Below, one piece after another: positions 1,632 through 20,039 of a stretch of DNA of 42,135 bases. The position numbers were made by a program, and so were the translations under genes. The notes beneath the pieces were generated by a model. That model was given only the letters and a program-made list of their open reading frames with translations, was not told the origin of the DNA and searched no databases. This DNA comes from Gammaproteobacteria bacterium. Its GTDB lineage: Bacteria; Pseudomonadota; Gammaproteobacteria; Nitrosococcales; Methylophagaceae. The DNA lies in NCBI GenBank assembly GCA_002402245.1, contig NVVP01000003.1, positions 1 to 42,135 on the forward strand. Reading direction: 5' to 3'. Position 1 is the stretch's first letter, and every line of letters starts with the position of its first letter.

Positions 1632-1644
1632 AATGTGCTCCTAT

Positions 1645-2760: not shown

Positions 2761-2792
2761 TTTAATAAATACTCCGTGGTTATAGGCTTAGG

Positions 2793-3353: not shown

Positions 3354-3354
3354 A

Positions 3355-4455: not shown

Positions 4456-5090
4456 TAAATAGCCTCCATTTGTATTTGAATAATTGTTAATGCACGGCTA
4501 AAACACGCTAGCCCCATAGTTTTATTGGTATGCGGTTGCTGCTTAGCGTTTGCAATGGTTTGACTTATCGCAGCCATTGAACTGATCGCCGCTATGCCGA
4601 TAGAACGTGTGAAAAAAATACCTATTTTTATGTCATATTCACTTCGTACCGGCTTTGCTCTATTCACTTTCCGTTTTATCAAGTTGTAGGTGCTTTCAGA
4701 AAGGATCGTGTCACTTAAATCTAGCGCTTTATTAACAACCGTTTCCAGTGAAAAATGATGGGGAACGCCATTTTCTTTCCAGCTTTCGCTTATAGAAAGC
4801 TGAACGCCTAATGGTTCCAGTGTTTTTTTAATTCCGTGAACCGTACCTCTAAATGCTTGAGCTTCGGGCGCGGCCTCAATCACATCTCGTTTTATTTGCT
4901 CACTCCAATCTGCCTGCCATTCATCAACACCGCGTTCCCACGCTAATAAAGTCAGCAGATAAGCAGGGCAGCGTTGTGGGTCTTTATACGTGGCAATTTC
5001 ATCAAAGCGATCAGAAGGCATGGCCGATAACACCGCTTGATGCATTACTTTTTCGTGAGCTGAGGCATTAGGTGGCAATAAATTAGTCAT
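4455..5090 (-). CDS. Baseplate/tail protein I (P2 gpI analogue)
   Basis: The LLPPNASAHEKVMHQAV motif is typical of tail protein I. I prefer the ATG at 5088-5090 (MTNLLPP...), which overlaps the gpJ stop by 8 nt (ATGACTAA), over the longer track ORF starting at 5147. Confidence 0.8.
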   Translation of the reverse strand: MTNLLPPNASAHEKVMHQAVLSAMPSDRFDEIATYKDPQRCPAYLLTLLAWERGVDEWQADWSEQIKRDVIEAAPEAQAFRGTVHGIKKTLEPLGVQLSISESWKENGVPHHFSLETVVNKALDLSDTILSESTYNLIKRKVNRAKPVRSEYDIKIGIFFTRSIGIAAISSMAAISQTIANAKQQPHTNKTMGLACFSRALTIIQIQMEAI

Positions 5091-6027
5091 TAACAATCCC
5101 TTGGCTAATCGTTGTCGCGGTACAAATAGCGACTGAGTCCCATGCAATTAATAGATCTTGCTCCCAACCTAATAATTCAACACTCTGCACACCCGCTACA
5201 TGCAGTGCTTTATCTAATCCTGACACGGCGATATCTAAACCAAGCCGCTTACGCTCTGCAACATAAATGTCGAGTGCAGCACTGGCCTCGTTAACTGATA
5301 TTTGATGATCAACACCGGGGTAAAAATTTAATATGGCCCCAACTTGATAATTAATAACAGTAGCGGCTTTAAGCGCTAAAAAATCAGTGAGTGGTCGCTG
5401 TTTATCAGCAGATAAATGGGTGTTAACCGTCGCTAATAAATCAGCATCAGCAATACCGCTTTCGTTATTAGCTAAAATAACGCCTAAGACGTGATCAGGC
5501 CGTGGGTTATCAAGCCCTAAATCATCAGTAACATCAAAATAAATACGATCGCCTTCTCGTCCCCATGCTTCAAAAGTGGGGGTTTTGAAATTAGCATCGA
5601 GTACCTCTGAGCTAGCGGCATAAGCATGATAACGGTACATTTCAAGTGCACCGGCTGTATTTCTGGCCTCCCAGCTTAGTGCCACACGATAACGAAAGCG
5701 TTCAAGCGCTTCATTTTCTTGCCGGTAAACTTGCATAGTCGCCCCGATGTGCTCTACTTCTGCTTCATCGGCATAGGCTAAAAAGCTATTTAATGCCATA
5801 GTGGCCGCGCGTAATTCTTGTTGCCAAATAACGTAAGCTTGAGCTTCAAATTGTTTAAGCTGGGGATCAGACTCGAGTAACGGATTAAATTCGTCCTCCG
5901 TTAGCTCATGATATTTATCGATGATTTGTTGAAGGATATCTTCAGGATCGCGTATAAAAGCAGCGTGTGGGGCAGGTAGTTCACTTAAAGGGAACGCAAC
6001 AGCCGGGCTTATTTGATTACTGGACAT
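5083..6027 (-). CDS. Baseplate assembly protein J
   Basis: 314 aa, between the W and I analogues; P2 synteny. Confidence 0.85.
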   Translation of the reverse strand: MSSNQISPAVAFPLSELPAPHAAFIRDPEDILQQIIDKYHELTEDEFNPLLESDPQLKQFEAQAYVIWQQELRAATMALNSFLAYADEAEVEHIGATMQVYRQENEALERFRYRVALSWEARNTAGALEMYRYHAYAASSEVLDANFKTPTFEAWGREGDRIYFDVTDDLGLDNPRPDHVLGVILANNESGIADADLLATVNTHLSADKQRPLTDFLALKAATVINYQVGAILNFYPGVDHQISVNEASAALDIYVAERKRLGLDIAVSGLDKALHVAGVQSVELLGWEQDLLIAWDSVAICTATTISQGIVND

Positions 6028-6361
6028 TAGCTACCCCGCTGGCAGTAAGATCTAACAATAAAGTGCCTTGATCAGTGGCTATAGTAATGTGTTGCTGGCC
6101 GTCACTCTGACCTTGAAATTTCACGCTTTTAATACTGTTAATTCTAGGTTCCCACTGGTGAACAGCGTGTGCTACTCCCGCTATAACACGCATAGCCGTG
6201 GTAGGCGTTTGAGCTTCATCAAGTAAGTCAGGAATGATCGAACCATAATCTCTACGCAACACCCGCGTACCGATCGGTGTGGTGATAATATCCAGCACAC
6301 TTTGCTGAATGTGCAGCTTGGCATTAATAGGCTGATAGTTTTTATTGCTAATACCTTGCAT
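6017..6361 (-). CDS. Baseplate assembly protein W (gp25-like)
   Basis: 114 aa. ...TPIGTRVLRRDYGS... is a GPW/gp25-type motif. Overlaps the J start. Confidence 0.85.
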   Translation of the reverse strand: MQGISNKNYQPINAKLHIQQSVLDIITTPIGTRVLRRDYGSIIPDLLDEAQTPTTAMRVIAGVAHAVHQWEPRINSIKSVKFQGQSDGQQHITIATDQGTLLLDLTASGVANVQ

Positions 6362-6363
6362 GG

Positions 6364-6948
6364 CTACACCTTGCTAGGCTTATTAGTGTTTACACCACCA
6401 CCGAAATGGTCGCCAGTGTTTTGTAGATGAGGATGATTTATGAAGCTAACACCATCGATATTCATATCGCCGTTATCGGCCTCAATACTGAGGGTGTCAG
6501 CCGTTAAGTTAAGGGTTGAGCTCGCCGCAATAGTGATGTTGTCAGCCGCCAAGTTAATGGTTTGTGCCGAAACCTTGACCGCGCCCACAGCTTGAACGTT
6601 TAAAACATGATCCTGCTTGTCATAGCTGACAACGGATCCATCTTCAAATTTATAGTTTTTAACGTCTTTGCTATTAGTGGGGTTCGGGTTTAACTTCGAG
6701 TTAATAGCACCAATGATGATGCCTTGTCGTAAATCACCACAAGGACAGACAATTAAAACTTGTTCACCTGGTTCATATAAATCACCGCTTTTATTGCTGC
6801 CAGCACGTGGCGCGGTCGCTACTAATTCAGTTGTGGATGCACCATCGATATCAACAATATACGTGCCAGTAGCTTCATTAACGCTGACGATATTGCCGAC
6901 CTCAATTAGTTGAGCAAGCTGCTGTTGAATTAGGGCGAGTTGTTTCAT
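6364..6948 (-). CDS. Baseplate spike/assembly protein V
   Basis: 194 aa, first gene of the V-W-J-I-H-G block, with a beta-rich C-terminus. Confidence 0.8.
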   Translation of the reverse strand: MKQLALIQQQLAQLIEVGNIVSVNEATGTYIVDIDGASTTELVATAPRAGSNKSGDLYEPGEQVLIVCPCGDLRQGIIIGAINSKLNPNPTNSKDVKNYKFEDGSVVSYDKQDHVLNVQAVGAVKVSAQTINLAADNITIAASSTLNLTADTLSIEADNGDMNIDGVSFINHPHLQNTGDHFGGGVNTNKPSKV

Positions 6949-6990
6949 GCTGCAATGCTTGCATTATTTACTTTTAAAGTCTTTACAGCA

Positions 6991-7018
6991 GACCGCGCTT
7001 AATTGATTAGGCGCGGTC
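6991..7018. promoter_or_regulatory. Dyad GACCGCGC-N12-GCGCGGTC in the S-V intergenic region; candidate late-activator site and/or terminator hairpin
   Basis: Perfect 8-bp arms with a 12-nt spacer containing the gpS stop codon. The core ACCGCGC-N12-GCGCGGT is identical to the dyad at 13165-13190. The last dyad base is exactly 43 nt from the gpV ATG. Confidence 0.5.
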
Positions 7019-7429
7019 TAGGTCTTCGACGAACTGTTTAGTGATATTTATAAGCTTATTTTTATCCTGACTAGTCACCCCAATAAGTGGCCGTGAGGTG
7101 TATTGGATTACTCGGTTGCCGACTTGTTGACGTTTACCATGATGGTGAATACTGGCAATGCGAGCAGTGTGGCCACTATAGCCAGCTGCAGCCATCGTAT
7201 CTGAGGTTCTAACCTTGAAATGCTTGTTGCTGCGTAGCTTGCGCATCATTGCCATGCTTGATTTATTACGGCGTGCGGTCCATCTATCACCTGATGGTGT
7301 TACCTGTTTTTTTATACGCGATTGGTTTTGCTGGCGAATAGTGTTTATTAACAGTTTAAGCAGTTGCGTGCGTTCTTTGGCCGTTAAACCTAATGGGATA
7401 TGCTCAGCCAAGCTCAGTGTTTGCGCCAC
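7007..7429 (-). CDS. Tail completion / virion morphogenesis protein (P2 gpS analogue)
   Basis: 140 aa, position after R and before V. Confidence 0.75.
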   Translation of the reverse strand: MAQTLSLAEHIPLGLTAKERTQLLKLLINTIRQQNQSRIKKQVTPSGDRWTARRNKSSMAMMRKLRSNKHFKVRTSDTMAAAGYSGHTARIASIHHHGKRQQVGNRVIQYTSRPLIGVTSQDKNKLINITKQFVEDLDRA

Positions 7430-7431
7430 GA

Positions 7432-7869
7432 TTAGTCGTCGTCACTGGCGGGGTGGGTAAACTCGATATCGTTAAGCACAATGCTATCAAAAGCGGGTGA
7501 TCCTGCGGTAAGTGAATCAGGCACTGGGCTAGCCATTGCTTTTTGTCCCATCTCGCCGACATTAACTTTATCTAACCAATCAAAGGTAAAATAATAATCA
7601 AAGGTATCATGGCTAATTCTTAATGCTTCAAATTTAATATCGTCACGCAAGGCATAACCTTGAGTTTCAGCCCATTTATAAATGAGTTGAGCATAGCCGC
7701 TAGCATCATCACTGCGTTCATTAAACGCCACTAAAAGAGTTAAAAATCCTGACGCTATATTACCTTCAACGTGATAACGCGAGTTAGGCAGTACATCAAC
7801 AATATAGTCATCGCGTTTTATTTTGGTATGTTCATCAATAAAATTTTGAATTGATTTAATGATTAACAT
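7432..7869 (-). CDS. Tail completion protein (P2 gpR analogue)
   Basis: 145 aa, between the lysis cassette and gpS. Confidence 0.7.
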   Translation of the reverse strand: MLIIKSIQNFIDEHTKIKRDDYIVDVLPNSRYHVEGNIASGFLTLLVAFNERSDDASGYAQLIYKWAETQGYALRDDIKFEALRISHDTFDYYFTFDWLDKVNVGEMGQKAMASPVPDSLTAGSPAFDSIVLNDIEFTHPASDDD

Positions 7870-8139
7870 TTAACGATTGCCTTCTTTGGTTTTAGCATCC
7901 AAAATCAACTGCACCAAGGCATTATTCCTGCTTCGGCAGCGTTGGTGTAAAGCTGTATTTTTAATCACTGTTGGAAAAAAAGTGTCTGCTGATGAGGCCA
8001 ACTCTAATGCTGAACATTTTTGCAGTAAATGATCTGGGATAACTTCAATCAGCTTGTCCGCTCGAACCTGCAATGTAGTTGTAGTCGAGCAGCCAGCCAG
8101 CATCAACACAGCTATGATCAATAGGGCTTTTAATTTCAT
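7870..8139 (-). CDS. Outer-membrane spanin lipoprotein (o-spanin, P2 LysC/Rz1-like)
   Basis: Signal peptide with a lipobox (MKLKALLIIAVLMLAGC). Its start is embedded in the 3' end of the i-spanin frame, the overlapped architecture seen in P2 lysB/lysC. Confidence 0.7.
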   Translation of the reverse strand: MKLKALLIIAVLMLAGCSTTTTLQVRADKLIEVIPDHLLQKCSALELASSADTFFPTVIKNTALHQRCRSRNNALVQLILDAKTKEGNR

Positions 8140-8391
8140 CGGTTAACACCTTATTTAATTTTTCATTAACGTCATGCTCAAATAATTGTGAGGCACTGCT
8201 TAGTTCAAACGCATGGCGGGCAGCACTATTAATGTATTGGGTTTCTTTTTGCTGGTATTGGGTTACAGCAGAATCAAATCCTGCCTGATATTTAGCTTCA
8301 CCATAATGGTGGATATAAAAATAGGTACCGGCTGTATGCTGGCGAGTAATAACAGGGCAATGGCTGGTTTAAGCAAGGCAATATTAAGCAT
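8045..8391 (-). pseudogene. Inner-membrane spanin (i-spanin, LysB/Rz-like) split by a 1-nt frameshift
   Basis: The ATG at 8389-8391 overlaps the endolysin stop by 8 nt and gives a TM-like N-terminus (MLNIALLKPAIALLLLASIQPV...) that stops at 8263. The periplasmic part (...GTYFYIHHYGEAKYQAGFDSAVTQYQQKETQYINSAARHAFEL...) is open in the -1 frame from 8368 to a TGA at 8045 and contains no Met. Confidence 0.55.
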
Positions 8392-8881
8392 GGTCAAATC
8401 CTCCTTCTATTCTGGCTGTGAACAGCGTGCCTTTGAATTGAGCCAGCTCACCGGCGCGACGAGAAATAATCCCGGCAGGTCTACGCCAGCGTTTAAATTC
8501 ATCGGCAGCTGCTGCGAAGCGACCTAGGTTTAATCGTCTAAGCAAGGTAGAACGGAAAAATGCCGAGCGGCCAATGTTGTAGCTAAAACTGACTAAAGCA
8601 TCGAACTGATGCGGTTTAAGTTTAATTTTGACATGAGTGTTAATGGTTTTTTCAAATTTAAGTAGATCTTGTTTAAATAAAAGGGTGACTTGATCAAATG
8701 TTAAGCCTTTACGCCACTTCACTTTTACACCGGCGATCTTAATGTGGCCGCTTAAATGTTCGGTGGCAGTAATTAAATGGCCTACGCCAATGGTGGGTAA
8801 GTGTTTGCTGTCAAAATACCATTTACGCCTTAGCCCTTCACGTCGTATTAATAAGTCAACGCCTTGCGCTGATGTCTTCAT
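8384..8881 (-). CDS. Endolysin, GH24 (T4-type) lysozyme
   Basis: Catalytic E-x8-D-x5-T triad in RREGLRRKWYFDSKHLPTIGVGH. Confidence 0.9.
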   Translation of the reverse strand: MKTSAQGVDLLIRREGLRRKWYFDSKHLPTIGVGHLITATEHLSGHIKIAGVKVKWRKGLTFDQVTLLFKQDLLKFEKTINTHVKIKLKPHQFDALVSFSYNIGRSAFFRSTLLRRLNLGRFAAAADEFKRWRRPAGIISRRAGELAQFKGTLFTARIEGGFDHA

Positions 8882-9168
8882 GATATTTTGCTCTCAAGGT
8901 ATTGCCTGATCAGCACACTGGCAGTTTCTGTCCCCAGCGTGCCTAATGCCGCTGAAATGGCAATAAGCACCAAGGCGTTAGGATCTGCCACAAATAAACA
9001 GGCCGCACCCGATACTAAGCCTAAAATGCTGTTGCTAATGGCGTAACCAATGGCTTGCTTTGCTGTTCTAGGCTCTGATGATGCCAAGGTTTTGCCAATG
9101 CTGGCTAAAAAAGCAACGCCTAAAAGGATCAGCGCCGTTTCGATAGTGTCAGGATCAATTTTTATCAT
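8878..9168 (-). CDS. Holin (probable)
   Basis: 96 aa with several hydrophobic helices, directly upstream of and overlapping the endolysin. Size similar to the P2 Y holin. Confidence 0.6.
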   Translation of the reverse strand: MIKIDPDTIETALILLGVAFLASIGKTLASSEPRTAKQAIGYAISNSILGLVSGAACLFVADPNALVLIAISAALGTLGTETASVLIRQYLESKIS

Positions 9169-9536
9169 TTTGATTGTGTTCCTTCATCATGCTCAATACT
9201 GCTAGCCGTGTGGTTAGGGTCGATTTTATTAAGGAGTGTTTTTAACAGCCTGCCCAGAAAAGATAAGTTGTTTTTAAGCTCGTTTTTACCTAGCACACTC
9301 GAGGGCGTTTCATCGGGATAACCAAACAAAGCGTACTGCCTTGTTTTTAATAACACATCATTAAATAACTCAGCAGCAATCACATTAATGGCTTGATCAA
9401 TCGTAAGGGCTACATTAAAAAACCATGGTCGACAGTCTTGTTTAAACACCAGGCACTTAATTAAAAAGTAGCTTGTGGCGATAGGGGACAACAATAAAAG
9501 TAATAGCCCAGCAAGTAGCACTAAAAAAATAGTCAT
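9165..9536 (-). CDS. Lysis-cassette membrane protein (antiholin/LysA-like?); function unassigned
   Basis: 123 aa with an N-terminal TM (MTIFLVLLAGLLLLLLSPIA). Translationally coupled to both gpX and the holin. Confidence 0.4.
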   Translation of the reverse strand: MTIFLVLLAGLLLLLLSPIATSYFLIKCLVFKQDCRPWFFNVALTIDQAINVIAAELFNDVLLKTRQYALFGYPDETPSSVLGKNELKNNLSFLGRLLKTLLNKIDPNHTASSIEHDEGTQSK

Positions 9537-9739
9537 TCTTTACCCCATAGTTGGATTCGATTATTTACGCTAGATTCTTGTTCTGGCATGGTTACGATCG
9601 TGCCAGCAGGTAATTGCAAAGGCAGGCGCATTAAGTGTGGATTGGTTGCCACAACCTGCGGCAGGCGACGACTATTGCCATCTTGCTGCGTGACGACTTC
9701 ATCCAGCATCATTGTGCGTGATAGAGTTACCGTGCTCAT
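9533..9739 (-). CDS. Tail protein X (P2 gpX analogue)
   Basis: 68 aa, between L and the lysis genes as in P2. Confidence 0.75.
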   Translation of the reverse strand: MSTVTLSRTMMLDEVVTQQDGNSRRLPQVVATNPHLMRLPLQLPAGTIVTMPEQESSVNNRIQLWGKE

Positions 9740-10164
9740 AGCTCATGCACCTTAAACCGACTTGAATTACCTAAAATAGTGTTGATTGCCACGGTTGCAT
9801 TTCGGTAACAGTTGTCGACTCGTTCTGTCATTCGGTCAGCACGATCATGGCCTTTGTCTCGCGTATCGACATCACGATACATTTCTAATAAATGCGCCTT
9901 AGTGTTTTCATAAACGGCTTCAAAATATAAATGTTCAATATCATCACCTTCTTCAGGTGGCGTAGCTTCGTTTGTTTGGTAGGATCTTAATAGCTCATTT
10001 ACTTTTAAACGGGCACCTTTAAGTTGAAAAGCAATCACCGAGTCTTCAACTGTACCGTCATTACGTGTACTGGCTTTAAACTGGGCAATAGACAGCGCTG
10101 GCCAAAAGCCATTGTTTTCAACGCTGTCGTTTACTTCTTCAGGGCTGTTTATCAATTGACTCAT
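9736..10164 (-). CDS. Head completion/stabilisation protein (P2 gpL analogue)
   Basis: 142 aa, after the M analogue. Confidence 0.8.
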   Translation of the reverse strand: MSQLINSPEEVNDSVENNGFWPALSIAQFKASTRNDGTVEDSVIAFQLKGARLKVNELLRSYQTNEATPPEEGDDIEHLYFEAVYENTKAHLLEMYRDVDTRDKGHDRADRMTERVDNCYRNATVAINTILGNSSRFKVHEL

Positions 10165-10279
10165 GGCAGGCTCTTTAAATAAGGGCGAGCAATGACATGA
10201 TCAAAGTGAAGTAAATAATACTCACTTGTCAGCATGCCACCCTCGCGGCTGGGAAAAGGTTATCCGCCGAAGGTAGGCA

Positions 10280-11077
10280 TCACGCTTCGGCTTTTGTTTC
10301 AGGTTCTACTTCCGACTTAACTTTGCTGTCATCACCTTCAGTTTTTGTTTCGAGCTTAACGTCGTCGTCATCATTGTTAGCAGCTTGCTGTAGCGGCTCA
10401 ATGCGCTCAACTAATGCCTTCATTTTTTTCAGCAAACCATGCTTAGTAGATTTTATTTTTACCGCTTGTTGATAATGTTTAAGTGCAGTAGCAGGCTGTA
10501 AATTAGCATTTAAATCACCCATCATTACCTGTACGTTAAAGCCTAATTTATCGTGCATATCAACAGTCATACTGTCTGCTGCCACTTCGATTATTTTGCC
10601 AATCAAGGCTTCATCAGGTGAATCAGCCATCGGCTTAGCTATCTCAACAAGGCGAGTCAAAATAAAGATATCAACCTCACGCAGTTGCATCATAGGGGGC
10701 ATTTGCCAGCCCTGAGCGCGTGCAAATGAAGACAGTTTATGGCCGTCAGCCAATAAGCAAGCATCAAACGTCCACACCAACACCGTCATAAATTCATTAT
10801 CTTGTGGCAGTGTAGTGACTTTATCAATATCAGCAGCCATCACGCCATCAACATACGCCGATAATTCAGCAAGGTGTTCAGCTTTAAATTCTGCCTTAGC
10901 CTGTGTTGAACGAATCATTTTTAACTGCAAGCCAAGCTCGGTTATTTTTTTACGAGCCCGATCTTGCTCGGTCACATCACCGCGTAGTTCAGGTTGCTCA
11001 CCGGTTTGCACTTTATCGGCCGTTTCTAACTTCGCCATTTCAACTGCGCGGTGCCGTTTAAAAGGATTAATAGCCAT
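10280..11077 (-). CDS. Terminase small (endonuclease) subunit (P2 gpM analogue)
   Basis: 265 aa, directly downstream of the capsid gene, with an acidic C-terminal tail. Confidence 0.8.
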   Translation of the reverse strand: MAINPFKRHRAVEMAKLETADKVQTGEQPELRGDVTEQDRARKKITELGLQLKMIRSTQAKAEFKAEHLAELSAYVDGVMAADIDKVTTLPQDNEFMTVLVWTFDACLLADGHKLSSFARAQGWQMPPMMQLREVDIFILTRLVEIAKPMADSPDEALIGKIIEVAADSMTVDMHDKLGFNVQVMMGDLNANLQPATALKHYQQAVKIKSTKHGLLKKMKALVERIEPLQQAANNDDDDVKLETKTEGDDSKVKSEVEPETKAEA

Positions 11078-11087
11078 AAATCACTCC

Positions 11088-12143
11088 TTATTCTGTGGGT
11101 TCGTCAGAGTCGACAATGTTCTCGACTAAGGCTACGGCACCGAGGTTTTCAACCACATAATCCACATTGTGAGTAAACCAGCGGTTATACCCTCGAGAGG
11201 CATGATCTTCATCGAGTTTGGTACGTCGAGAACCTTCCTGCTCATAAACTGATAAGGAACCTTTCGGCATAATTAAAAAGGCATCCTCTGGAAAGTACGG
11301 AACGGTAATCGCTTCCATGCCGCCGATTCGTTTCTCACTCACCAAGGCATCACGATGTGTATGCTCACTAGGATCAATGTCTTCTTTATTCATTACTTTG
11401 AAATATTTATCATTGAGCAATGAAGAGCCCAGGATCACCACCAAATCAAGGCGCTCGCGATGCACTTCATCTAATAATGATTTTCTAGCACTAAATGCCA
11501 TGGCATCAATGTTTTTAAAGTAATCAGTCTCAGCTGAGCCGAAACTGTTATCAGTTGATTTCACATGGGCAGGTGCTTCAGCACGAATGGTTTGTAACCA
11601 GCCAATATTAACGTCTTGGCCCAATGGGTTAGCCGTTCGATTAGAATTAGCAGCGTAACTGGTGCCATTAAAGCCGATTTTAATGTGATCCAAAGCTTGA
11701 CGCTTACTTAAAAATTCAGTTAACCGCATCTGAAAATCAGGGAATTTAGCCCACTTATTCAGCTTGGACCATGGCAGTAAAGTATCAAAGTCATTGGTGC
11801 GACATTCGTAACCTTTATCTTTCAATGTGGAAGGATCAATGCCACTTCGCTTGCCGCTGCCTGATGTATCGGTATTGCTGGTGATAACCAGACCGTCATC
11901 ATCAATAAATATTTTTTGCCCTGAGATATCGTCGACTAATTCAAAATTAACATATTGAGTTAAAAAGGCAGATGAATGTTGAACCGTATCATGCAGTGTT
12001 TGTTGCACGGTGGGTTCAATCGCAAATGATTGACCGCCGGAGACTGTTTGGCTGTCAACGCCATTAAGCTCTCCTTGGCGGCTAAAATAGCCACGTAACG
12101 CTGATAACGCGGCAGGGCTCGGATTAGTTCGTGTGACTTGCAT
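11088..12143 (-). CDS. Major capsid protein (P2 gpN analogue)
   Basis: 351 aa, between the scaffold and M analogues. Confidence 0.9.
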   Translation of the reverse strand: MQVTRTNPSPAALSALRGYFSRQGELNGVDSQTVSGGQSFAIEPTVQQTLHDTVQHSSAFLTQYVNFELVDDISGQKIFIDDDGLVITSNTDTSGSGKRSGIDPSTLKDKGYECRTNDFDTLLPWSKLNKWAKFPDFQMRLTEFLSKRQALDHIKIGFNGTSYAANSNRTANPLGQDVNIGWLQTIRAEAPAHVKSTDNSFGSAETDYFKNIDAMAFSARKSLLDEVHRERLDLVVILGSSLLNDKYFKVMNKEDIDPSEHTHRDALVSEKRIGGMEAITVPYFPEDAFLIMPKGSLSVYEQEGSRRTKLDEDHASRGYNRWFTHNVDYVVENLGAVALVENIVDSDEPTE

Positions 12144-12178
12144 TATTTATTCCTTATTATCTGGAAGGTGAGCAGTGG

Positions 12179-13081
12179 TTAACAGGTGGCTAAATGGCTA
12201 TCTTGATCGCCACCATTATGAGGTGTGCGTTTAAACTGAGGCTGCTTTTCAATATCAGCTTTTAAGCCATCAAACTCAGCTTTAAAGTCTTTAACGGTGA
12301 CGCTTAAGCCATCTAATTTATCTTGCGAGGCAAAGTCCGTATTACCTTCTGTTAAGGCTTTAACATTAGCTTCAAGCGCATCAATTTTGTTATTAAAGTC
12401 AGTAGCATCAGTGCTAGAAATTTCAGCTGCGGGGTGTTCTTTTTTGTAGGCATCCACTGCCTGAGCCACTTGGTTTTCAATGGTTTCATCCATCTTTTCA
12501 GCCATTTGACTAAACGCTGCTTTTACATCGTTAACATCTAAACTGGTTTTTTTAGAAAATAAACCGCTTACAAACTCACTTACTTTTCCTTTCATGTCGG
12601 TGTCCTCTTCAAAGTTAAATTCGGTGTGAATATATTCACTGATATAAGTATGTTCACTTGCTTGCTTGCCCGTGCTAAATGCCAGCCGTGTCGTGCCAAC
12701 ACTGGCCGGGCTATCGGTTACCGCAAGACCTGTTAAATAGGCTTCATTGGTATCAGCAAAGCTGTCGTCTATTTCCATTGAGGTATAGACTTTTTGGCTT
12801 TGCTGATTCATTAGGACCAATTCAGGCGTGGGCGTTAATGCCGCTAATAATGCAGTTTTGCCTTTTAATAGGCCTTTTTCGATTGGCGCGGTGATTAATG
12901 ACACCACATCGCCGACCGCTTTAAAGTCACCGGTCGGCCGGTATGAACGAAGATGCTCAATCCAAATTCGAGCGCCATATACATCCGGGCTGTAATTTTT
13001 AGCCGCCTGCTCAAGCCAGCTACGTTTAATCGTGCGACCGTCAACGGTGGCACCTTCAACCCCAATAATAAAATATTGCAT
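12179..13081 (-). CDS. Capsid scaffolding protein (P2 gpO analogue)
   Basis: 300 aa. The N-terminus MQYFIIGVEGATVDGRTIKRSWLEQAAKNYSPDVYGARIWIEH is typical of the GPO family. Divergent from the terminase gene. Confidence 0.85.
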   Translation of the reverse strand: MQYFIIGVEGATVDGRTIKRSWLEQAAKNYSPDVYGARIWIEHLRSYRPTGDFKAVGDVVSLITAPIEKGLLKGKTALLAALTPTPELVLMNQQSQKVYTSMEIDDSFADTNEAYLTGLAVTDSPASVGTTRLAFSTGKQASEHTYISEYIHTEFNFEEDTDMKGKVSEFVSGLFSKKTSLDVNDVKAAFSQMAEKMDETIENQVAQAVDAYKKEHPAAEISSTDATDFNNKIDALEANVKALTEGNTDFASQDKLDGLSVTVKDFKAEFDGLKADIEKQPQFKRTPHNGGDQDSHLATC

Positions 13082-13233: not shown

Positions 13234-14991
13234 ATGATTAAAGACACTGATGGCCTTGCCCCCAAACTGTACGCTCAAATGCTGTTCTTTCAGGGTTACT
13301 ACCCCAAAGAAATTGCAGACATTACCGGCACGCCATTAAACACAGTAAATAGCTGGACTCGACGCGGAAAATGGAAAGATGCTGGCATCATTAAACGAGC
13401 AGCGTTGATGACCGAGGTGCGTTATTGCCAAATGCTGTTTAAACAACATAAAACCGATGGTGATTTAGCTGAGATTGAGCAGTTATATAAAACCATTGAA
13501 AAAGCAGACAGGCGTTTATATAGCAATACCGCCCCTAAATCAGGCCAGCGAAAACGCAATAATAAAAAGAATTATTTTTCACCTAAAGAAATCGAGGTAT
13601 TAAAATCAGCCTTTTTTGAACGATTGTTTACTCACCAAGAAACATGGTGGGATGCCCGGCATAACAAGGTAAGACAAACCCTTAAATCCCGCCAAATTGG
13701 TGCCACCGATTATTTTGGTATTGAAGCCTTTATGAAAGGCTTACTTAAAACAGAAATGGATGAACGTGGCAGCGCCTTTATTTCGGCCAGCAAGGCTCAA
13801 GCATTCCAGTTTAAAGAATATATTGTCGGCTTTGTTCAACAAGTATTGGACCGGGAAATAAAAGGTGATCCACTTATTTACACGACCGATGTGGGCCGTA
13901 ATAAATTAGACTTTTTAGGCACCAATGCTCGCACGGCACAAGGGAGGCCCGCCCATACCTATATTGACGAGTATTTTTGGATCCAGCGCTTTAGATCGTT
14001 ACGTGAAGTATCTATCGCCATGGCGACTCAAAAGTTTTACCAGGCTACTTTCTTTTCAACTACCTCAACATTAACGCATGAGGCTTATGAATGGTGGTCG
14101 GGCGAATGGTACAACCAAGGCCGTAATATTAATGATCATATTTCAATTGATATATCACACGAAATTTTAAAGACGGGCAAAGTGTGTGAAGACGGCCATT
14201 GGCGACAAATAGTCACCTTTGATGACGCCGTTGAAAGTGGATTTAATTTATTTGATCCCGACCATATCAAACTAATGAATAGCCCCGATATTATTGAGCA
14301 GCTTTATAACTGTAAGTTTATTGATGATATCAACTCGCCTTTCCCCTTAACGCAAACCACGGCCTGCGGGGTGGATTGCTGGATCGAGTGGGATGACTTT
14401 TTCGAACCTTTTGCCGTAAAACCCGTAGCCAATCTACCTGTTTGGGTGGGTTACGATCCTTCATTAGTCGGTGATTTTGGCAAGGTCGTGGTTATTTTAT
14501 TGCCGCTTAAACACGGTGATAAATACCGTTTAATTGAAAAGCTACATTTTGATGGCGCTGATTTTACCGAGCAAGCTGCAGCCATTAAAGCACTCACCCA
14601 AAAATACAATGTGCAACGCATATCTGTTGATCGCAATGGCTTGGGCGAGGGTGTATTTGGTGAGATTAAAAAATTCTTTCGGCGTGTAGAAGCAGTTGAT
14701 TATTCCCCAGACAATAAAGCGGTCATGGTTACTAAGCTTCAATATTTACTAGGTCGCAACCTATTTGAATACGATGCAGGCGATATCGAAACCCCACAAT
14801 CATTAGCCGCAATAGAGCGGTCTTTAACCGATGCGGGCAGAAAAATAACCTATAAAGCAGGCAGAAATAAAGACATAGGTCACGCCGATACAGCGTGGGC
14901 ATTATTAAATGCATTCAACCCTTTACAGCTAGATCAGTTGAATGTTTCAAACGATGAGCAGTCACGCAGTGGCGGCACTCGAATCTATTAG
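13234..14991 (+). CDS. Terminase large (ATPase) subunit (P2 gpP analogue)
   Basis: 585 aa, divergent from O and followed by the portal gene. Confidence 0.9.
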   Translation: MIKDTDGLAPKLYAQMLFFQGYYPKEIADITGTPLNTVNSWTRRGKWKDAGIIKRAALMTEVRYCQMLFKQHKTDGDLAEIEQLYKTIEKADRRLYSNTAPKSGQRKRNNKKNYFSPKEIEVLKSAFFERLFTHQETWWDARHNKVRQTLKSRQIGATDYFGIEAFMKGLLKTEMDERGSAFISASKAQAFQFKEYIVGFVQQVLDREIKGDPLIYTTDVGRNKLDFLGTNARTAQGRPAHTYIDEYFWIQRFRSLREVSIAMATQKFYQATFFSTTSTLTHEAYEWWSGEWYNQGRNINDHISIDISHEILKTGKVCEDGHWRQIVTFDDAVESGFNLFDPDHIKLMNSPDIIEQLYNCKFIDDINSPFPLTQTTACGVDCWIEWDDFFEPFAVKPVANLPVWVGYDPSLVGDFGKVVVILLPLKHGDKYRLIEKLHFDGADFTEQAAAIKALTQKYNVQRISVDRNGLGEGVFGEIKKFFRRVEAVDYSPDNKAVMVTKLQYLLGRNLFEYDAGDIETPQSLAAIERSLTDAGRKITYKAGRNKDIGHADTAWALLNAFNPLQLDQLNVSNDEQSRSGGTRIY

Positions 14992-15000
14992 AGGTCAGTT

Positions 15001-15993
15001 ATGAGTATTGAAATTGGACAACGTGTCAGCGTAATGGATATAAGCGAAGTAATTAATATGCTTGATTCATGTTATCAATTTGATGGGATCTATCATCCAC
15101 CTGTTAGTTTTCAAGGCTTAGCTAAAACGCTTAACTTGCCGTTTCATGGTTCTTGTATTCATTTAAAGAAAAACATATTAAGTGAATGCTTTAACCCGCA
15201 TACACTTTTATCACGCCAAGATTTTACAGGGTTAGCACTGGATTTTTTATTATTCGGTAACGCCACCTTGCTTGATAATAAAAATATGCGTGGTGCCACG
15301 CTAAATTATCAACGTAAATTAATGAAATACATGCGTAGAAAAGTGGAAAACCCTGATCAATGGGTTGAAATGTCATCAGGTGGGTATTTTGGAACGTCAT
15401 TTAAAACCGAGTTCAATCAAGGCGATATCGGTCATGTATTTTCACCCGATGTAAACCAAGAATTATATGGTATGCCTGAATGGTTATCAGGTTTAAATGG
15501 TGCTTTGCTTAATGAAAAAGCCCAGCTATTTCGCCGTGCTTATTATGAAAATGGTAATCATGCTGGCTTCATTTTATATCTACGAGATCCTGATATATCA
15601 GATGATGAAGCGGGCGCTTTAGCCGATAAAATTAAAAATATTAAAGGTGAGAATGCATTTAAAAATATATTAGTTCACTCAGCCGGTGGCGAAAAAGGCG
15701 GCATTGAATTAGTGCCAATGGGCGAAGTGACAGCTAAGGATGAATTTTTTAATGTTAATCGTGTCAGCCGTGACAATACCATTGCATCCCACCGTATGAT
15801 CCCCCAATTTTTAGGCGTGCAAGCTGAAAGTAATGGCGGTTATGGCGATATTGAAAAAGCAGCCATGGTCATTGCTAAAAATGAAATTTATCCCATTTTT
15901 CGCCAACTAGAACTACTTAATGATTGGTCAGGTGAACAACTGATCACGTTTGATAAATACAAACTAGAAGAATTAGATGAAATAACACAATAA
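15001..15993 (+). CDS. Portal protein (P2 gpQ analogue)
   Basis: 330 aa, immediately after the terminase gene. Confidence 0.9.
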   Translation: MSIEIGQRVSVMDISEVINMLDSCYQFDGIYHPPVSFQGLAKTLNLPFHGSCIHLKKNILSECFNPHTLLSRQDFTGLALDFLLFGNATLLDNKNMRGATLNYQRKLMKYMRRKVENPDQWVEMSSGGYFGTSFKTEFNQGDIGHVFSPDVNQELYGMPEWLSGLNGALLNEKAQLFRRAYYENGNHAGFILYLRDPDISDDEAGALADKIKNIKGENAFKNILVHSAGGEKGGIELVPMGEVTAKDEFFNVNRVSRDNTIASHRMIPQFLGVQAESNGGYGDIEKAAMVIAKNEIYPIFRQLELLNDWSGEQLITFDKYKLEELDEITQ

Positions 15994-16104: not shown

Positions 16105-16314
16105 ATGATGGAATTGATGATGCCAAAACAAAAACGCCAAGATATTCGCTGTGGACACTGTGATCGTAAATTAGCTGAAGGAAGTTATTACTCTTTATCG
16201 ATCAAATGTCCACGCTGTAAAACACTAAATTTGCTGACGGTCACTAGAACCGCTAAACCAGCACTCCTTGAGAGTCTTGATCAAAGGATCTCTCATGGAA
16301 ACAATACAACTTAA
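16105..16314 (+). CDS. com: Com-like zinc-finger protein (Mu Com family translational activator)
   Basis: IRCGHCDRKLAEGSYYSLSIKCPRCKTLNLL parallels Mu Com IRCKNCNKLL...IEIRCPRCKRHII (CxxC...CxxC). GAGGG Shine-Dalgarno 8 nt upstream. The 3' end overlaps the methyltransferase start. Confidence 0.7.
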   Translation: MMELMMPKQKRQDIRCGHCDRKLAEGSYYSLSIKCPRCKTLNLLTVTRTAKPALLESLDQRISHGNNTT

Positions 16315-17233: not shown

Positions 17234-17250
17234 GCAGTACTTATATCCAT

Positions 17251-17282
17251 AGCTGGTCAGCCTAAAGTTAGGTTGACCAGCT
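17251..17282. terminator. Hairpin between the convergent methyltransferase and DUF2971-like genes (bidirectional terminator candidate)
   Basis: AGCTGGTCA...TGACCAGCT forms a 9-bp perfect stem that can extend inward through GCCTAA/TTAGGT. No strong T-run follows. Confidence 0.45.
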
Positions 17283-17286
17283 AACC

Positions 17287-18159
17287 CTACCTATAAGAAG
17301 CCTTAGACGGCTTCACCTCAACATTGTCATAACCAGCCTGCTTAAGCAAGCTCTCAACAACATGGATAGGCGTTACGTTTTTAGGCCCCAATATAACCTC
17401 GGTAATAAGACTCCTATCTTCCTTGTCAAAATGAAATTCTCTAAAGGGGGTAATACAATCATCCTTCGAACGAAAATTACATAAAGCATTATTGTCTTTT
17501 GGATCAAGATGTATATCCATCAGATAGCTCACTAACCGCCATTCCTGCTCTTCGATAAATGCTTTCGATTTAAAAGAAAAAGATATTTTTGGCAGATCCG
17601 TTAGTAGGGAAGAGAGTAAACTAACACACTGCGATCTCTGTTTCTTATGGGCGGCTGTAGGATTACGGTGTTTCTGTAGCTGTTCTAGAGTATCAAGCTC
17701 TGCCTTTAAAGGAATGTAAAGCTCCTTCACAATTTCTTTTTGCTTGGCTTCATCGTACTCAATTGGTTGCAATGTAGTTAACGGGTTTTTCAGTTTATTA
17801 TTCTTTGAGCTTTGATTGCACGCTAACTTTAAAGCATCTAAAGAAAAGCCTATAGAAAAACCTTTTGCATCATTTGCATAACCTCGCCACTGACTAAGTA
17901 AATCATCCTCCGCTGATAAGCAGAATCCCAGCCCCTCGAACATAGGCGAAAATGCTTTTAACTGCGCTTTTAAGAGTCCTGCCTTCCATTCACCGAAGCC
18001 GTCTTCATTTGCTACTTTTAATAGTAAGTCGGAAACCAACTTACCTTCCATTGAATCATTCGATAGCGATAACGAGTTTAAAAAAACGGATCGGTTTTTA
18101 ATGATCGAAAGAAAGGCACCGTTCGAGCAGTAATGGTAAAGAGTGTCAGTATTATTCAT
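17287..18159 (-). CDS. DUF2971-like protein, function unknown (prophage cargo)
   Basis: LYHYCSNGAFLSIIKNRSVFLNSLSLSNDSMEG, then SQWRGYANDAKGFSIGF, then EEQEWRLV. This fits my recollection of the DUF2971 (PF11185) signature. No virion or lysis role is suggested by its position. Confidence 0.6.
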   Translation of the reverse strand: MNNTDTLYHYCSNGAFLSIIKNRSVFLNSLSLSNDSMEGKLVSDLLLKVANEDGFGEWKAGLLKAQLKAFSPMFEGLGFCLSAEDDLLSQWRGYANDAKGFSIGFSLDALKLACNQSSKNNKLKNPLTTLQPIEYDEAKQKEIVKELYIPLKAELDTLEQLQKHRNPTAAHKKQRSQCVSLLSSLLTDLPKISFSFKSKAFIEEQEWRLVSYLMDIHLDPKDNNALCNFRSKDDCITPFREFHFDKEDRSLITEVILGPKNVTPIHVVESLLKQAGYDNVEVKPSKASYR

Positions 18160-18232
18160 GTTTCTGATTCTATATTAGTTAGGGCCATATCCAAAGTAAA
18201 CGCTACTTTAAAAAAACCATTAAACCTTAAAA
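18125..18232. repeat. Copy 1 of a ~107-bp direct repeat (5' end of the DUF2971-like CDS plus its promoter/operator)
   Basis: Aligns with 19154-19260. Fully conserved blocks include ATTATTCATG, TATATTAG and CAAAGTAAACGCTACTTTAAAAAA, followed by CCATTAAACCTTAAAA. Confidence 0.85.
18172..18209 (-). promoter_or_regulatory. Candidate sigma70 promoter (TTTACT-17-TAATAT) with an overlapping dyad AAAGTA-N5-TACTTT, upstream of the DUF2971-like gene
   Basis: On the minus strand the -35 is at 18195-18200 and the -10 at 18172-18177. The dyad at 18193-18209 overlaps the -35. The hexamers and dyad are conserved in copy 2 while the spacer has diverged. Confidence 0.4.
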
Positions 18233-18286
18233 TCATAGGCTGTCCATCACCGACAATGATTTCATAATTATTTTAAACTTCCAGCG

Positions 18287-19102
18287 TTACTGACTAAGTG
18301 ATGCTTTTTTGCCATCTAAATTTATTACATTAACAAGACCGTTACCAGTGTTTTCCTCCGGTCCACTATAGATAATTTGCGAGCCGTTACTATGGTATTG
18401 TTGAATTACCCCACCTTGTCGGGTCGACTCGATCTTAATGAGTTTTTTATCTGCATTCTCATCAAGTAACCTGATAAAGCTTTTGTTTGTATCTCCATAG
18501 ACTCCCATGATCAAGGATTCTTTATTTTTATCATTAAAAAATAACAGTTGCGGCTGATCATTAAATAAAGACAATGAAAGCTTTTTATCTTCAGATTCAT
18601 TATTGATTAAAATCATCCCGTCTCCATCTTGATCTGCTCGGATATCTACAGCTACTATGCCATCCGAATTTTTTATCTCAACCGCACTTAGTGATAATTT
18701 TTGACTTCCATTTTTTAGCTGAGCCAATAAATCATTTACTTTTATCTGTTGAATTTGTTTGATTTTTAAATCAGCAGCATGCCCAGCTTCAGATTCTATC
18801 TCTTGAATGGCCGCTTTTTTTTTCTGCTCTAATTCAGTAGTAGCAGTATCTATTGACGCTTCCCACTTACTGAATTTGTTTTCAAAAGGGGCGGTGCGAT
18901 CATTTAAAGATAAAAGTTTAGTTTCTAAAGATAAAATCTTGTCTTCCAAAGCACTAAACCATGTTGCTCCCCAAATGCCAGCGGCAGAAAACAATGCAAT
19001 TACTAAAAAGCCTGCATATATATTTTTATCTATTTTATGCTTGTACTCTTCTAGAACGGAGAGCCGTTGTTTTAAATCCTGTACTTGTTCATCAGTAGCC
19101 AT
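18287..19102 (-). CDS. Membrane-anchored coiled-coil protein with a C-terminal strand-turn repeat domain; function unknown (prophage cargo)
   Basis: AAAGGA Shine-Dalgarno 7 nt upstream of the ATG. One TM helix at roughly residues 28-50 (IYAGFLVIALFSAAGIWGATWF), flanked by heptad-like segments. Residues ~135-271 form about 11 repeats of 11-14 aa. Confidence 0.8.
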   Translation of the reverse strand: MATDEQVQDLKQRLSVLEEYKHKIDKNIYAGFLVIALFSAAGIWGATWFSALEDKILSLETKLLSLNDRTAPFENKFSKWEASIDTATTELEQKKKAAIQEIESEAGHAADLKIKQIQQIKVNDLLAQLKNGSQKLSLSAVEIKNSDGIVAVDIRADQDGDGMILINNESEDKKLSLSLFNDQPQLLFFNDKNKESLIMGVYGDTNKSFIRLLDENADKKLIKIESTRQGGVIQQYHSNGSQIIYSGPEENTGNGLVNVINLDGKKASLSQ

Positions 19103-19165
19103 AAAAAATCCTTTGGTAGGTAATTCACAACAATGGAATAAAATGTATCGATTGAGCAGTAGTAA

Positions 19166-19189
19166 TCAAAGGCTGTCAGGATTATTCAT
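19166..19189 (-). pseudogene. Relic 5' end of a second DUF2971-type gene (MNNPDSL-stop)
   Basis: ATGAATAATCCTGACAGCCTTTGA aligns with the ATGAATAATACTGACACTCTTTAC start of the intact gene (MNNTDTLY). Confidence 0.5.
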
Positions 19190-19200
19190 GCTTGCACCCT

Positions 19201-19238
19201 ATATTAGATAGAACTATACCCAAAGTAAACGCTACTTT
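19201..19238 (-). promoter_or_regulatory. Second copy of the TTTACT-17-TAATAT promoter plus AAAGTA-N5-TACTTT dyad, upstream of the relic and the 271-aa gene
   Basis: -10 at 19201-19206, -35 at 19224-19229, dyad at 19222-19238. Same geometry as copy 1. Confidence 0.4.
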
Positions 19239-19366
19239 AAAAAACCATTAAACCTTAAAACCCTCATCAATCCTCCACCCCACAGCACGCTGCGCGCTTC
19301 CCCGACCCGACCTGCGGTTTTTAAATGCGGTAAAAATGTGCAGGTAATGTTCTGGTGCAATCGACC

Positions 19367-19391: not shown

Positions 19392-19473
19392 TGTGCAAAT
19401 AAAAGACTTTATTACACGTGCTGAATAACTGTTTTTAACTGTTTTCTACCAAGCGTGATTTTCATCTAGTGCG

Positions 19474-19486
19474 CGCAAAAGTGTAA
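19474..19486 (+). repeat. Left arm of a 13-bp perfect inverted repeat CGCAAAAGTGTAA
   Basis: The reverse-complement partner is at 19759-19771, 272 bp away. Confidence 0.8.
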
Positions 19487-19551
19487 CTTATGCAACGGTG
19501 TAGGCTATTTATTACTTAACCTACTGTTTTTAAATTAATAAAAAATATATT

Positions 19552-19565
19552 AAAAGTGTAACTAT
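19552..19565 (+). repeat. AAAAGTGTAACTAT motif copy
   Basis: Shares AAAAGTGTAAC with 19477-19487. Confidence 0.7.
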
Positions 19566-19567
19566 TA

Positions 19568-19610
19568 GGGGATAAAAGGTGATAAAAAAGGTGATTATTT
19601 ACAAGGTGTT
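19568..19610 (+). repeat. Phased GGTGAT(A/T)-rich repeats (GGGGATAAAA / GGTGATAAAAAA / GGTGATTATTT / AAGGTGTT)
   Basis: 10-12 bp periodicity with A-tracts; iteron-like or bent DNA. Confidence 0.55.
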
Positions 19611-19651
19611 GTTTTGTATGGTTTTTGTTGTTTTCTCTTGTTATGGTTATT

Positions 19652-19662
19652 AGTGTAACTAT
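19652..19662 (+). repeat. AGTGTAACTAT motif copy
   Basis: Identical 11-mer to 19555-19565. Confidence 0.7.
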
Positions 19663-19758
19663 ATTACATAGTGATCACTTATAAATTACATTCTTCATTA
19701 TCCGTTAAACCTATAAGCACCAATGGATACCGCTTTGTTTTTCGCGCAATCCCATAGA

Positions 19759-19771
19759 TTACACTTTTGCG
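19759..19771 (-). repeat. Right arm of the 13-bp inverted repeat CGCAAAAGTGTAA
   Basis: The plus strand reads TTACACTTTTGCG. Confidence 0.8.
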
Positions 19772-19849
19772 ACACCCTGTATGTTTGTCCTGAATGCATC
19801 GATATCACGTATACGCGGGGTAGTTTTTCGTAAATACGCGAGGAATGCT

Positions 19850-19877
19850 TTGACAGTGGGTTTAAACAGTGTATAGT
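19850..19877 (+). promoter_or_regulatory. Strong sigma70-type promoter TTGACA-16-TATAGT for the rimP-nusA-infB operon
   Basis: Consensus -35 at 19850-19855 and near-consensus -10 at 19872-19877, 167 nt upstream of rimP. Confidence 0.6.
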
Positions 19878-19972
19878 GGCGGTCTTTAAGAGGTCGAGGG
19901 GAAGGGTTAAGCTCTGAACTTCAGTGCAGGGTATCGGTTGTTGCGAGCCCCCGCTACCAATTTAACAAAAAC

Positions 19973-19997
19973 AGACCCCTTTATGGGGTTTTTGTTT
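19973..19997 (+). terminator. Intrinsic terminator/attenuator in the operon leader
   Basis: ACAGACCCC-TTTAT-GGGGTTTTTGTTT: a GC stem followed by a T-run. Confidence 0.6.
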
Positions 19998-20016
19998 ATC
20001 TGGAGGTTAGGAAATT

Positions 20017-20039
20017 GGGCTATAGGCCCTTTTTTTTTA
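20017..20039 (+). terminator. Second weaker leader hairpin with a T9 run
   Basis: GGGC-TATAG-GCCC followed by TTTTTTTTT, ending 4 nt before the rimP ATG. Confidence 0.35.

Follow-up and report, generated by a model that had tools for sequence, protein, structure and literature searches.

A DUF2971 gene and a membrane-protein gene in a P2-type cargo hotspot beside the portal gene of a gammaproteobacterial prophage

Our analysis of contig NVVP01000003.1 (assembly GCA_002402245.1, positions 1 to 42,135), derived from an uncultured gammaproteobacterium of the family Methylophagaceae, was focused on two neighbouring minus-strand genes, which encode a DUF2971 protein (gene 1) and a single-pass membrane protein (gene 2). 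The whole stretch of 42,135 nt, referred to below as the window, contains the late half of a P2-like prophage. We consider it probable that genes 1 and 2 are two independent single-gene moron cassettes, stacked beside the portal gene at a site which is the counterpart of the old/tin hotspot of phage P2. The locus represents a defence-hotspot type of cargo slot, which has already been described, and not a new two-gene system. The following features form its core:

13234-14991, plus strand: terminase gene, gpP (Pfam and gene calls)
15001-15993, plus strand: portal gene of the gpQ type (PF04860), the conserved anchor of the hotspot
17287-18159, minus strand: gene 1, DUF2971 protein of 290 aa (open reading frame and PF11185)
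18287-19102, minus strand: gene 2, single-pass membrane protein of 271 aa (open reading frame and hydropathy)

The P2-type order of the late genes was confirmed by Pfam labels on a public scaffold, with capsid, terminase, lysis and tail genes of the prophage on the minus strand. Both open reading frames are intact and the gap between them amounts to 127 nt, in which a terminator scan revealed no minus-strand terminator-like site. In these respects (the P2 order of virion and lysis genes, and two minus-strand genes 127 bp apart with no terminator between them) the original prediction, which had been made from the sequence alone, proved accurate.

In P2, a defence hotspot is located between gpA and gpQ, next to cos (PMC9122126, Rousset et al.; PMC13586616, Moura de Sousa et al.), and rapid swapping of cargo leaves small intergenic remnants at P2 hotspots (PMC13586616). 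The P2 loci of Escherichia coli compiled in Table S5A of PMC9122126 include the combinations “hypothetical + DUF2971 + hypothetical + hypothetical” and “DinI + DUF2971 + DUF4145”, as well as methyltransferase-containing combinations and DarTG; DUF2971 is missing from the tested systems of Table S2 of the same study, so that those loci were apparently untested there. Many of the P2-hotspot cargo systems that have been tested proved to be anti-phage.

Genes 1 and 2 correspond to such cargo, i.e. to variable accessory genes which, in a P2-like phage, follow directly on the portal 3' end. This agrees with the two hotspot studies and with the original prediction, which had placed the pair at the old/tin end of the P2 map, beside cos and Q. 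The same conclusion is supported by four P2-like IMG/VR contigs (L017, L032, L062 and L063), whose portal genes are 35-41% identical to that of the window, and in which the distance from the portal gene to a distant DUF2971 homologue is 1-5 kb (in L062 and L063 this gene is placed between gpQ and gpA). The cargo at this spot differs among the four contigs. Moreover, 15 of 38 DUF2971 genes on IMG/VR contigs of at least 20 kb were found within 10% of a contig end, where 20% would be expected (p = 0.005). The window resembles the P2 old/tin locus in having variable cargo right after the portal 3' end, candidate promoters belonging to the cargo itself, quick turnover and small remnants. It is unlike P2 in that the far side of the slot is formed by the attachment site and host DNA, and not by gpA: replication gene A does not form the other border of the hotspot, a junction with the host gene rimP being found instead, and the replication genes lie at the other end of the prophage, with a Toprim primase gene at that far end.

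Two further observations concern the viral contigs. A gene for a 1555-aa RHS-repeat protein is inserted between the DUF2971 and portal genes of L017 (positions 1280-5947), and is an unusually large cargo for this slot. The possibility that L062 is an E. coli prophage was considered and rejected.

Genes 1 and 2 occur together only on contigs of this one organism. We surveyed the surroundings (within 1.5 kb) of 54 DUF2971 genes, located on 51 viral and 3 metagenomic contigs, and no neighbour family recurred across these loci beyond sets of closely related prophages; none of the neighbours was like gene 2. Likewise, no DUF2971 gene was present beside the relatives of gene 2 in loci L010, L011, L068, L070 and L071. 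Since the two families do not co-occur elsewhere, and since a DUF2971 remnant precedes gene 2 (see below), the genes are best regarded as two independent one-gene cassettes; the joint cassette envisaged in the original prediction is confined to this prophage, and each family stands alone elsewhere. A DUF4145 gene is found beside one gene 2 relative (L011), and DUF4145 also accompanies DUF2971 in the E. coli P2 hotspots (PMC9122126, Table S5A). DUF4145 may thus be a partner of both families, or no more than a frequent tenant of hotspots.

The history of the slot is recorded in the repeated sequences which precede both genes:

18104-18232, minus strand: repeat copy A, before gene 1, comprising an A/T-rich block, a candidate promoter, the ATG of gene 1 (18159) and the first ~55 nt of gene 1
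19133-19260, minus strand: repeat copy B, before gene 2, comprising the same candidate promoter and then a decayed DUF2971 5' end
18193-18209: palindrome AAAGTA-GCGTT-TACTTT of copy A, within the core and overlapping the candidate -35
19222-19238: the same palindrome, AAAGTA-N5-TACTTT, in copy B
18200-18195 and 18177-18172, minus strand: candidate promoter of copy A, -35 TTTACT and -10 TAATAT with a 17-nt spacer, the hexamers being conserved in both copies
19229-19224 and 19206-19201, minus strand: candidate promoter of copy B, -35 and -10, same hexamers
19166-19189, minus strand: mini-ORF of seven codons (MNNPDSL and a stop), which is what a frameshift has left of the beginning of a second, lost DUF2971 gene, with the remnant reaching to ~19133

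The two copies, each of ~130 nt and 1029 nt apart, can be aligned in register. Common to them is a core of 44 nt (TTTTAAGGTTTAATGG-T(6-7)-AAAGTAGCGTTTACTTTGG), identical in both save for a 1-nt difference in the length of the T run, and exact cores are present at just these two places in the window (0.00-0.03 expected). The common module that had been predicted upstream of both genes is thus real. Copy B is 79% identical to copy A in the upstream part and 72% in the coding part. It carries one extra G, which creates the stop after seven codons of the mini-ORF, and whose removal gives MNNPDSLYYYCSIDTFYSIV, to be compared with MNNTDTLYHYCSNGAFLSII in gene 1. Because deletion of this G restores MNNPDSLYYYCSIDTFYSIV, the leader of gene 2 consists of the promoter-like module and, after it, the decayed 5' end of another DUF2971 gene, which had diverged from gene 1. 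The presence of this decayed start upstream of gene 2 shows that gene 2 replaced an earlier DUF2971 copy; it displaced most of that gene downstream of the conserved promoter, as in a hotspot cargo swap. Gene 2 has its own ribosome-binding site (AAGGA-N6-ATG), ~60 nt past the decayed DUF2971 start, and the leader of gene 1 is very short and lacks a Shine-Dalgarno sequence.

Each gene is probably expressed from the resident prophage via its own copy of this duplicated promoter-like module. The palindrome is operator-like, and copies of it were absent from the immunity region of the prophage. Exact-pattern scans of metagenome, genome and viral collections did not reveal the promoter module anywhere else.

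The gene 2 family is the truly uncharacterised element of the locus. Judging from its relatives, gene 2 is a real gene of a rare, uncharacterised family. The protein contains one hydrophobic stretch (residues 28-50, by hydropathy), as anticipated for a 271-aa single-pass membrane protein, and no family above threshold was found for it in Pfam, PADLOC, PHROGs or NCBIfam. A word-indexed search retrieved only gene 2 itself, annotated as hypothetical in a gammaproteobacterial metagenome-assembled genome. An exhaustive search, covering 1.84 billion representative proteins, identified 37 distant relatives, 240-350 aa long and built in the same way (best non-self E 1.4e-49).

These relatives were found in diverse genetic surroundings. 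One (L010) is chromosomal and stands alone among hypothetical genes, and another (L011) is followed, 17 nt downstream, by the aforementioned DUF4145 gene (1233-1913). The relative P0130 (L068) forms one integron cassette, with ~125-nt attC sites (GCCTAAC...GTTAGGC) on both sides, and that of L070 lies amid transposases, integrases and toxin-antitoxin pairs. The relative in L071, 37% identical to gene 2 and flanked by long gaps, is located within a cluster for lipopolysaccharide (LPS)-core biosynthesis (region 2848-12809, with WaaP-type kinases, GmhA, HldE and a heptosyltransferase). A scan of IMG/VR revealed no gene 2 relatives, and no GTTRRRY motif or attC-like palindrome was detected in the 55 nt after gene 2 itself. 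The integron array of L068 (1-12499) is an observation in its own right: it holds at least 15 same-strand genes between the ~125-nt attC sites, and most of its cassettes are devoid of any Pfam family.

An AlphaFold2 (AF2) model of the gene 2 product (overall predicted local distance difference test, pLDDT, 79; above 90 in the C-terminal domain) consists of a short N-terminus, a long helix (residues 4-119) which includes the transmembrane helix (28-50), and a 12-strand beta-hairpin sheet (140-270). The only structures matched by the model in Foldseek were the single-layer sheets of OspA, in native and engineered form (E 4e-6), and, at a weaker level, Rhs shells; the OspA-like fold carries no functional implication. 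The charges flanking the hydrophobic stretch weakly favour an N-in/C-out topology, in which the beta-sheet domain would probably be periplasmic, on a helical stalk. The GC content of gene 2 (35.2%, versus 42.5% for the late genes) is well below that of its surroundings. We regard its product as a probably unrelated, recently acquired membrane protein, whose most likely, though only tentatively assigned, role would be to exclude incoming phages at the envelope or to alter the cell surface in another way.

It is conceivable, if rather unlikely, that gene 2 founds a family of stand-alone, envelope-anchored superinfection-exclusion proteins, carried as single-gene cargo of prophage hotspots, integron arrays and transposon islands; such a role is speculation. 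The architecture that would go with it (a cytoplasmic N-terminus and one transmembrane helix, followed by a periplasmic stalk of ~70 residues which carries an OspA-like single-layer beta-sheet as its head) is put forward with similar diffidence. P22 SieA, T4 Imm and TP-J34 Ltp, small prophage-encoded envelope proteins of superinfection exclusion that are encoded by stand-alone morons, would be the nearest parallels, but neither sequence nor fold similarity to gene 2 was found, its sole structural match being the OspA-like sheet.

There is a substantial chance, although below even, that gene 2 has no connection with phages, and is an envelope or surface accessory involved, e.g., in adhesion or envelope stability. 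A surface-protein fold of the OspA type mounted on a stalk would suit such a function, as would the relative residing inside the LPS-core gene cluster, the lack of a match in PADLOC or PHROGs and the lack of relatives in IMG/VR. On the other hand, gene 2 occupies a hotspot where many tested cargo systems were anti-phage, and its relatives are found in an integron array, in an island of transposons and toxin-antitoxin pairs, and beside a gene of DUF4145, a domain which is also present in P2 hotspot loci.

Gene 1 was recognized by the PF11185 (DUF2971) profile with 52.4 bits (E 1.4e-13; gathering cut-off 22 bits), as the original prediction of a DUF2971-like protein had implied, and all 32 aligned members of its subfamily also matched this profile. 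In PHROGs it belongs to phrog_1762 (E 1.2e-25). The match to the PADLOC candidate PDC-S31 was weak (E 8.8e-9) and restricted to profile positions 116-178 of 273, and PDC-S31 models were matched, again weakly (E 1e-7 to 1e-10), by all 32 members. The recommended Pfam and PADLOC searches of both proteins thus assigned gene 1 to DUF2971, with a weak match to PDC-S31, and gave no family for gene 2. A word-indexed protein search yielded 1971 homologues of gene 1, nearly all of ~287 aa, the best of which (40-48% identity) originate from Desulfobacterota, Planctomycetota, Kiritimatiellota and other phyla.

The 32-sequence alignment is unusually tight. Gene 1 is full length in it and keeps every invariant residue (H9-Y10-C11, D35, E38-G39, Q90-W91-R92-G93-Y94, E204, E206-W207-R208, S285 and Y289). 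The public gene call of the European Nucleotide Archive (ENA), with 254 aa starting at M37, was rejected as too short: it omits the invariant N-terminal LYHYCS, and the alignment supports the 290-aa open reading frame. Homologues of gene 1 are solitary in loci L003, L005 and L007. DUF2971 genes were also found by tblastn on 72-203 plasmid records, among them one IncI plasmid on which the DUF2971 gene is followed by a gene for an “abortive infection family protein” (a DUF3800 gene is present too), and on one streptococcal phage satellite.

DUF2971 has been placed, by prediction, among the ADP-ribosyltransferases of the H-Y-E clade, alongside DarT, AbiGi and Tox-ART-HYD1, with a poorly conserved His (motif I), a strictly conserved Tyr (motif II), ExE (motif III) and large helical inserts (PMC12522546). 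The DUF2971 motifs described in this way are present in gene 1: H9, Y94 (in QWRGY) and E204/E206 (in EEQEWR) are invariant in the 32 sequences. The motifs quoted in the original prediction contain these very H, Y and ExE residues, so its statement that no catalytic motif could be named in the protein is not supported. In an AF2 model of gene 1 (pLDDT 79), strand 1 carries H9, Y94 precedes strand 4, and E204/E206 mark the beginning of a strand; the succession of strands is broken by two helical inserts (37-74 and 137-193), which fits the published description. Among the 50 PDB matches listed by Foldseek, the highest TM-scores belong to DarT (7omv, 0.46; 7omx, 0.45), with a probability of 0.14 or less. 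AbiGi was the sole defence-related Pfam family among the faint matches (E of up to 10) which recurred in more than one member of the subfamily (2 of 32, E 0.069).

Aristaios (pUCCL641_199), a 316-aa lactococcal DUF2971 protein, is a validated single-gene anti-phage system whose action is consistent with abortive infection (PMC11381338). It resembles gene 1 in being a single gene of ~300 aa, carried by a mobile element, in which only DUF2971 is recognisable; an ADP-ribosyltransferase-like fold is predicted for it and the phenotype is of the abortive-infection type. PDC-S31 is similarly a single-gene candidate based on DUF2971-type proteins; as far as the searched literature shows, it lacks experimental validation. 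The DUF2971 gene is therefore a plausible anti-phage candidate. This part of the original prediction can be retained, and the word “undescribed” cannot, in view of PDC-S31, Aristaios and the hotspot combinations of Table S5A.

We infer from the literature and the conserved residues, with no independent confirmation of the fold in our own comparisons, that gene 1 encodes an ADP-ribosyltransferase. The enzyme would most likely be kept inactive until phage infection; once activated, it would act, in the manner of DarT or AbiGi, on nucleic acid or an essential protein, and would stop the invader from replicating while sacrificing the infected cell, as has been reported for Aristaios. Although the literature places DarT and AbiGi in the same clade as DUF2971 (PMC12522546), gene 1 differs from DarTG in that neither a macrodomain gene (DarG) nor any other antitoxin gene lies beside it, its neighbours being gene 2 and a methyltransferase gene, and from DarT in its two large helical inserts and in the lack of a significant structural match.

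An unlikely alternative is that gene 1 is a weapon or counter-defence enzyme of the phage, comparable with T4 Alt/Mod, or a host-directed effector, as is predicted for some DUF2971 proteins of Legionella. It would be consistent with the prediction that ~18% of DUF2971 proteins are secreted effectors (PMC12522546) and with the frequent occurrence of relatives on conjugative plasmids. However, the sigma-70-like module belonging to gene 1 points away from the late operons, most relatives are chromosomal, solitary and spread over many phyla, Aristaios and PDC-S31 indicate defence, and the gene on the IncI plasmid is situated beside an Abi-family gene.

Several observations weigh against the interpretation of the locus as two independent cassettes, the first of which encodes an anti-phage ADP-ribosyltransferase. 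The absence of a terminator between the genes would allow co-transcription, and hence cooperation. The promoters were called by manual reading, with 8 of 12 consensus matches, which is under the threshold of the promoter scan. Foldseek comparison of the gene 1 model with PDB gave no match at E <= 0.001 (best E 0.27) and that with BFVD no significant match (best E 0.024), and the family profile produced only chance matches to PDB sequences. The PDC-S31 matches span just 63-100 residues of models 208-273 positions long. Aristaios, unlike gene 1, derives from a plasmid of the Gram-positive Lactococcus and was assayed on a high-copy vector, and the two are related only at the level of the shared Pfam domain; consistent with this, tblastn with gene 1 or a streptococcal relative revealed no lactococcal plasmid matches. 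Many close homologues of gene 1 reside among housekeeping genes and not in defence islands.

A cooperating two-component system, in which the DUF2971 effector would be controlled by a membrane protein acting as sensor or anchor at the envelope, was the main idea of the original prediction and is in our opinion very improbable. The shared strand, the 127-nt distance, the lack of a terminator-like site and the common upstream module are all compatible with it. Nevertheless, the pair does not recur outside this prophage, each family is found by itself, and one gene 2 relative is a one-gene integron cassette. Furthermore, the remnant shows that gene 2 displaced another DUF2971 copy instead of arriving with gene 1, and the two genes differ in GC content (39% for gene 1, 35% for gene 2).

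On its other side, gene 1 converges on a module composed of a Com-type gene and a methyltransferase gene:

16105-16314, plus strand: Com-type zinc-ribbon gene (PF10122, E 2.6e-12)
16295 (ATG) to 17233, plus strand: N6/N4 DNA methyltransferase gene (PF01555, E 2.3e-46; PADLOC MTase_II, E 7.9e-92)
17250-17283: hairpin, an inverted repeat with 16-nt arms that are 94% complementary, located where gene 1 and the methyltransferase gene converge, between their 3' ends

The hairpin lacks a T run and is likely to be a two-way transcription stop. The Com gene overlaps the start of the methyltransferase gene by 20 nt, an arrangement which recalls the translational control of Mu com-mom, here applied to an N6/N4 methyltransferase. 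From what is known of com-mom in phage Mu, coupling to Com suggests that the phage modifies its own DNA late and for its own protection. Among all the loci retrieved, the 54 that carry DUF2971 being part of them, both genes matched only the scaffold of this organism. No cognate nuclease for a type II restriction-modification system was apparent, as no nuclease family was found for the proteins of genes 1 and 2, and a Pfam search (including a scan of the 32 members at E <= 10) found no nuclease signature in gene 1. On these grounds we consider the Com-methyltransferase pair to be a neighbouring but separate module. The three-part arrangement raised in the original prediction, in which the methyltransferase would mark the phage's own DNA, and the DUF2971 and membrane proteins would attack unmarked DNA, could appeal to the convergent orientation, the shared hairpin and the methyltransferase-containing combinations in P2 hotspots, but it is hardly credible given a methyltransferase that lies on the opposite strand, is coupled to Com and does not accompany DUF2971 elsewhere, and a DUF2971 protein with no nuclease signature.

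The remaining part of the locus is the border between the prophage and the host chromosome, where the host operon rimP-nusA-infB begins at position 20044:

19470-20036: prophage-host junction zone, with a motif cluster, host promoter and rimP leader
19850-19877: strong near-consensus host promoter (promoter scan)
19942-20036: rimP leader (41.7 bits, E 3.6e-5)

On a public 30-kb scaffold of the same prophage, the immunity and replication genes are situated past the tail genes, at the opposite prophage end. Because of this, and because rimP adjoins the locus, genes 1 and 2 are placed between portal/cos and the attachment site, at the very edge of the prophage; with the attachment site in the same region, the cassettes of a lysogen would form the prophage edge next to rimP. 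Motifs of the AAAGTGTAAC type occur at 19478, 19553 and 19758 (all within 290 nt; two copies are exact and in direct orientation, and the third is inverted and has one mismatch). These clustered motifs (19470-19775) may serve as arm-binding sites for the integrase in the att region, their window-wide number being not above chance; no att core sequence was identified in the junction zone.

Just upstream of the rimP leader, the end of a plus-strand segment (19824-19959), ...GAGCCCCCGCTACCA, resembles the acceptor 3' end of a tRNA, and CGCGGGGTAG, similar to the 5' end of tRNA-fMet, is located 136 nt upstream of the GAGCCCCCGCTACCA end. In E. coli, metY precedes rimP. The segment 19824-19959 may thus hold a split or degraded tRNA at the attachment site. 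ARAGORN detected no tRNA in the window and no Rfam family reached the threshold, so that integration into a tRNA gene is not shown. An independent assembly of the same sample (ENA scaffold_462) ends ~900 nt past gene 2, at about 20000 and near the prophage-host junction; such a break would be compatible with a population in which some of the cells lack the prophage. The sequenced phages nearest to this prophage are ~43% identical in terminase, and terminase pattern scans of genome and viral contig collections revealed no close relatives.

To conclude, the findings leave current understanding unchanged. The rule that the defence hotspot of E. coli P2-like phages is located next to cos and the portal gene also applies to the present P2-like prophage, which is very distant from them and comes from an uncultured gammaproteobacterium, and DUF2971 genes recur at this spot across lineages. 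The DUF2971 remnant before gene 2 provides a rare case in which an earlier occupant of a swapped hotspot slot can be identified. The tight ~287-aa DUF2971 subfamily, with its ~2000 members in many phyla and its candidate H, Y and ExE residues, is well suited to the first ADP-ribosyltransferase biochemistry.

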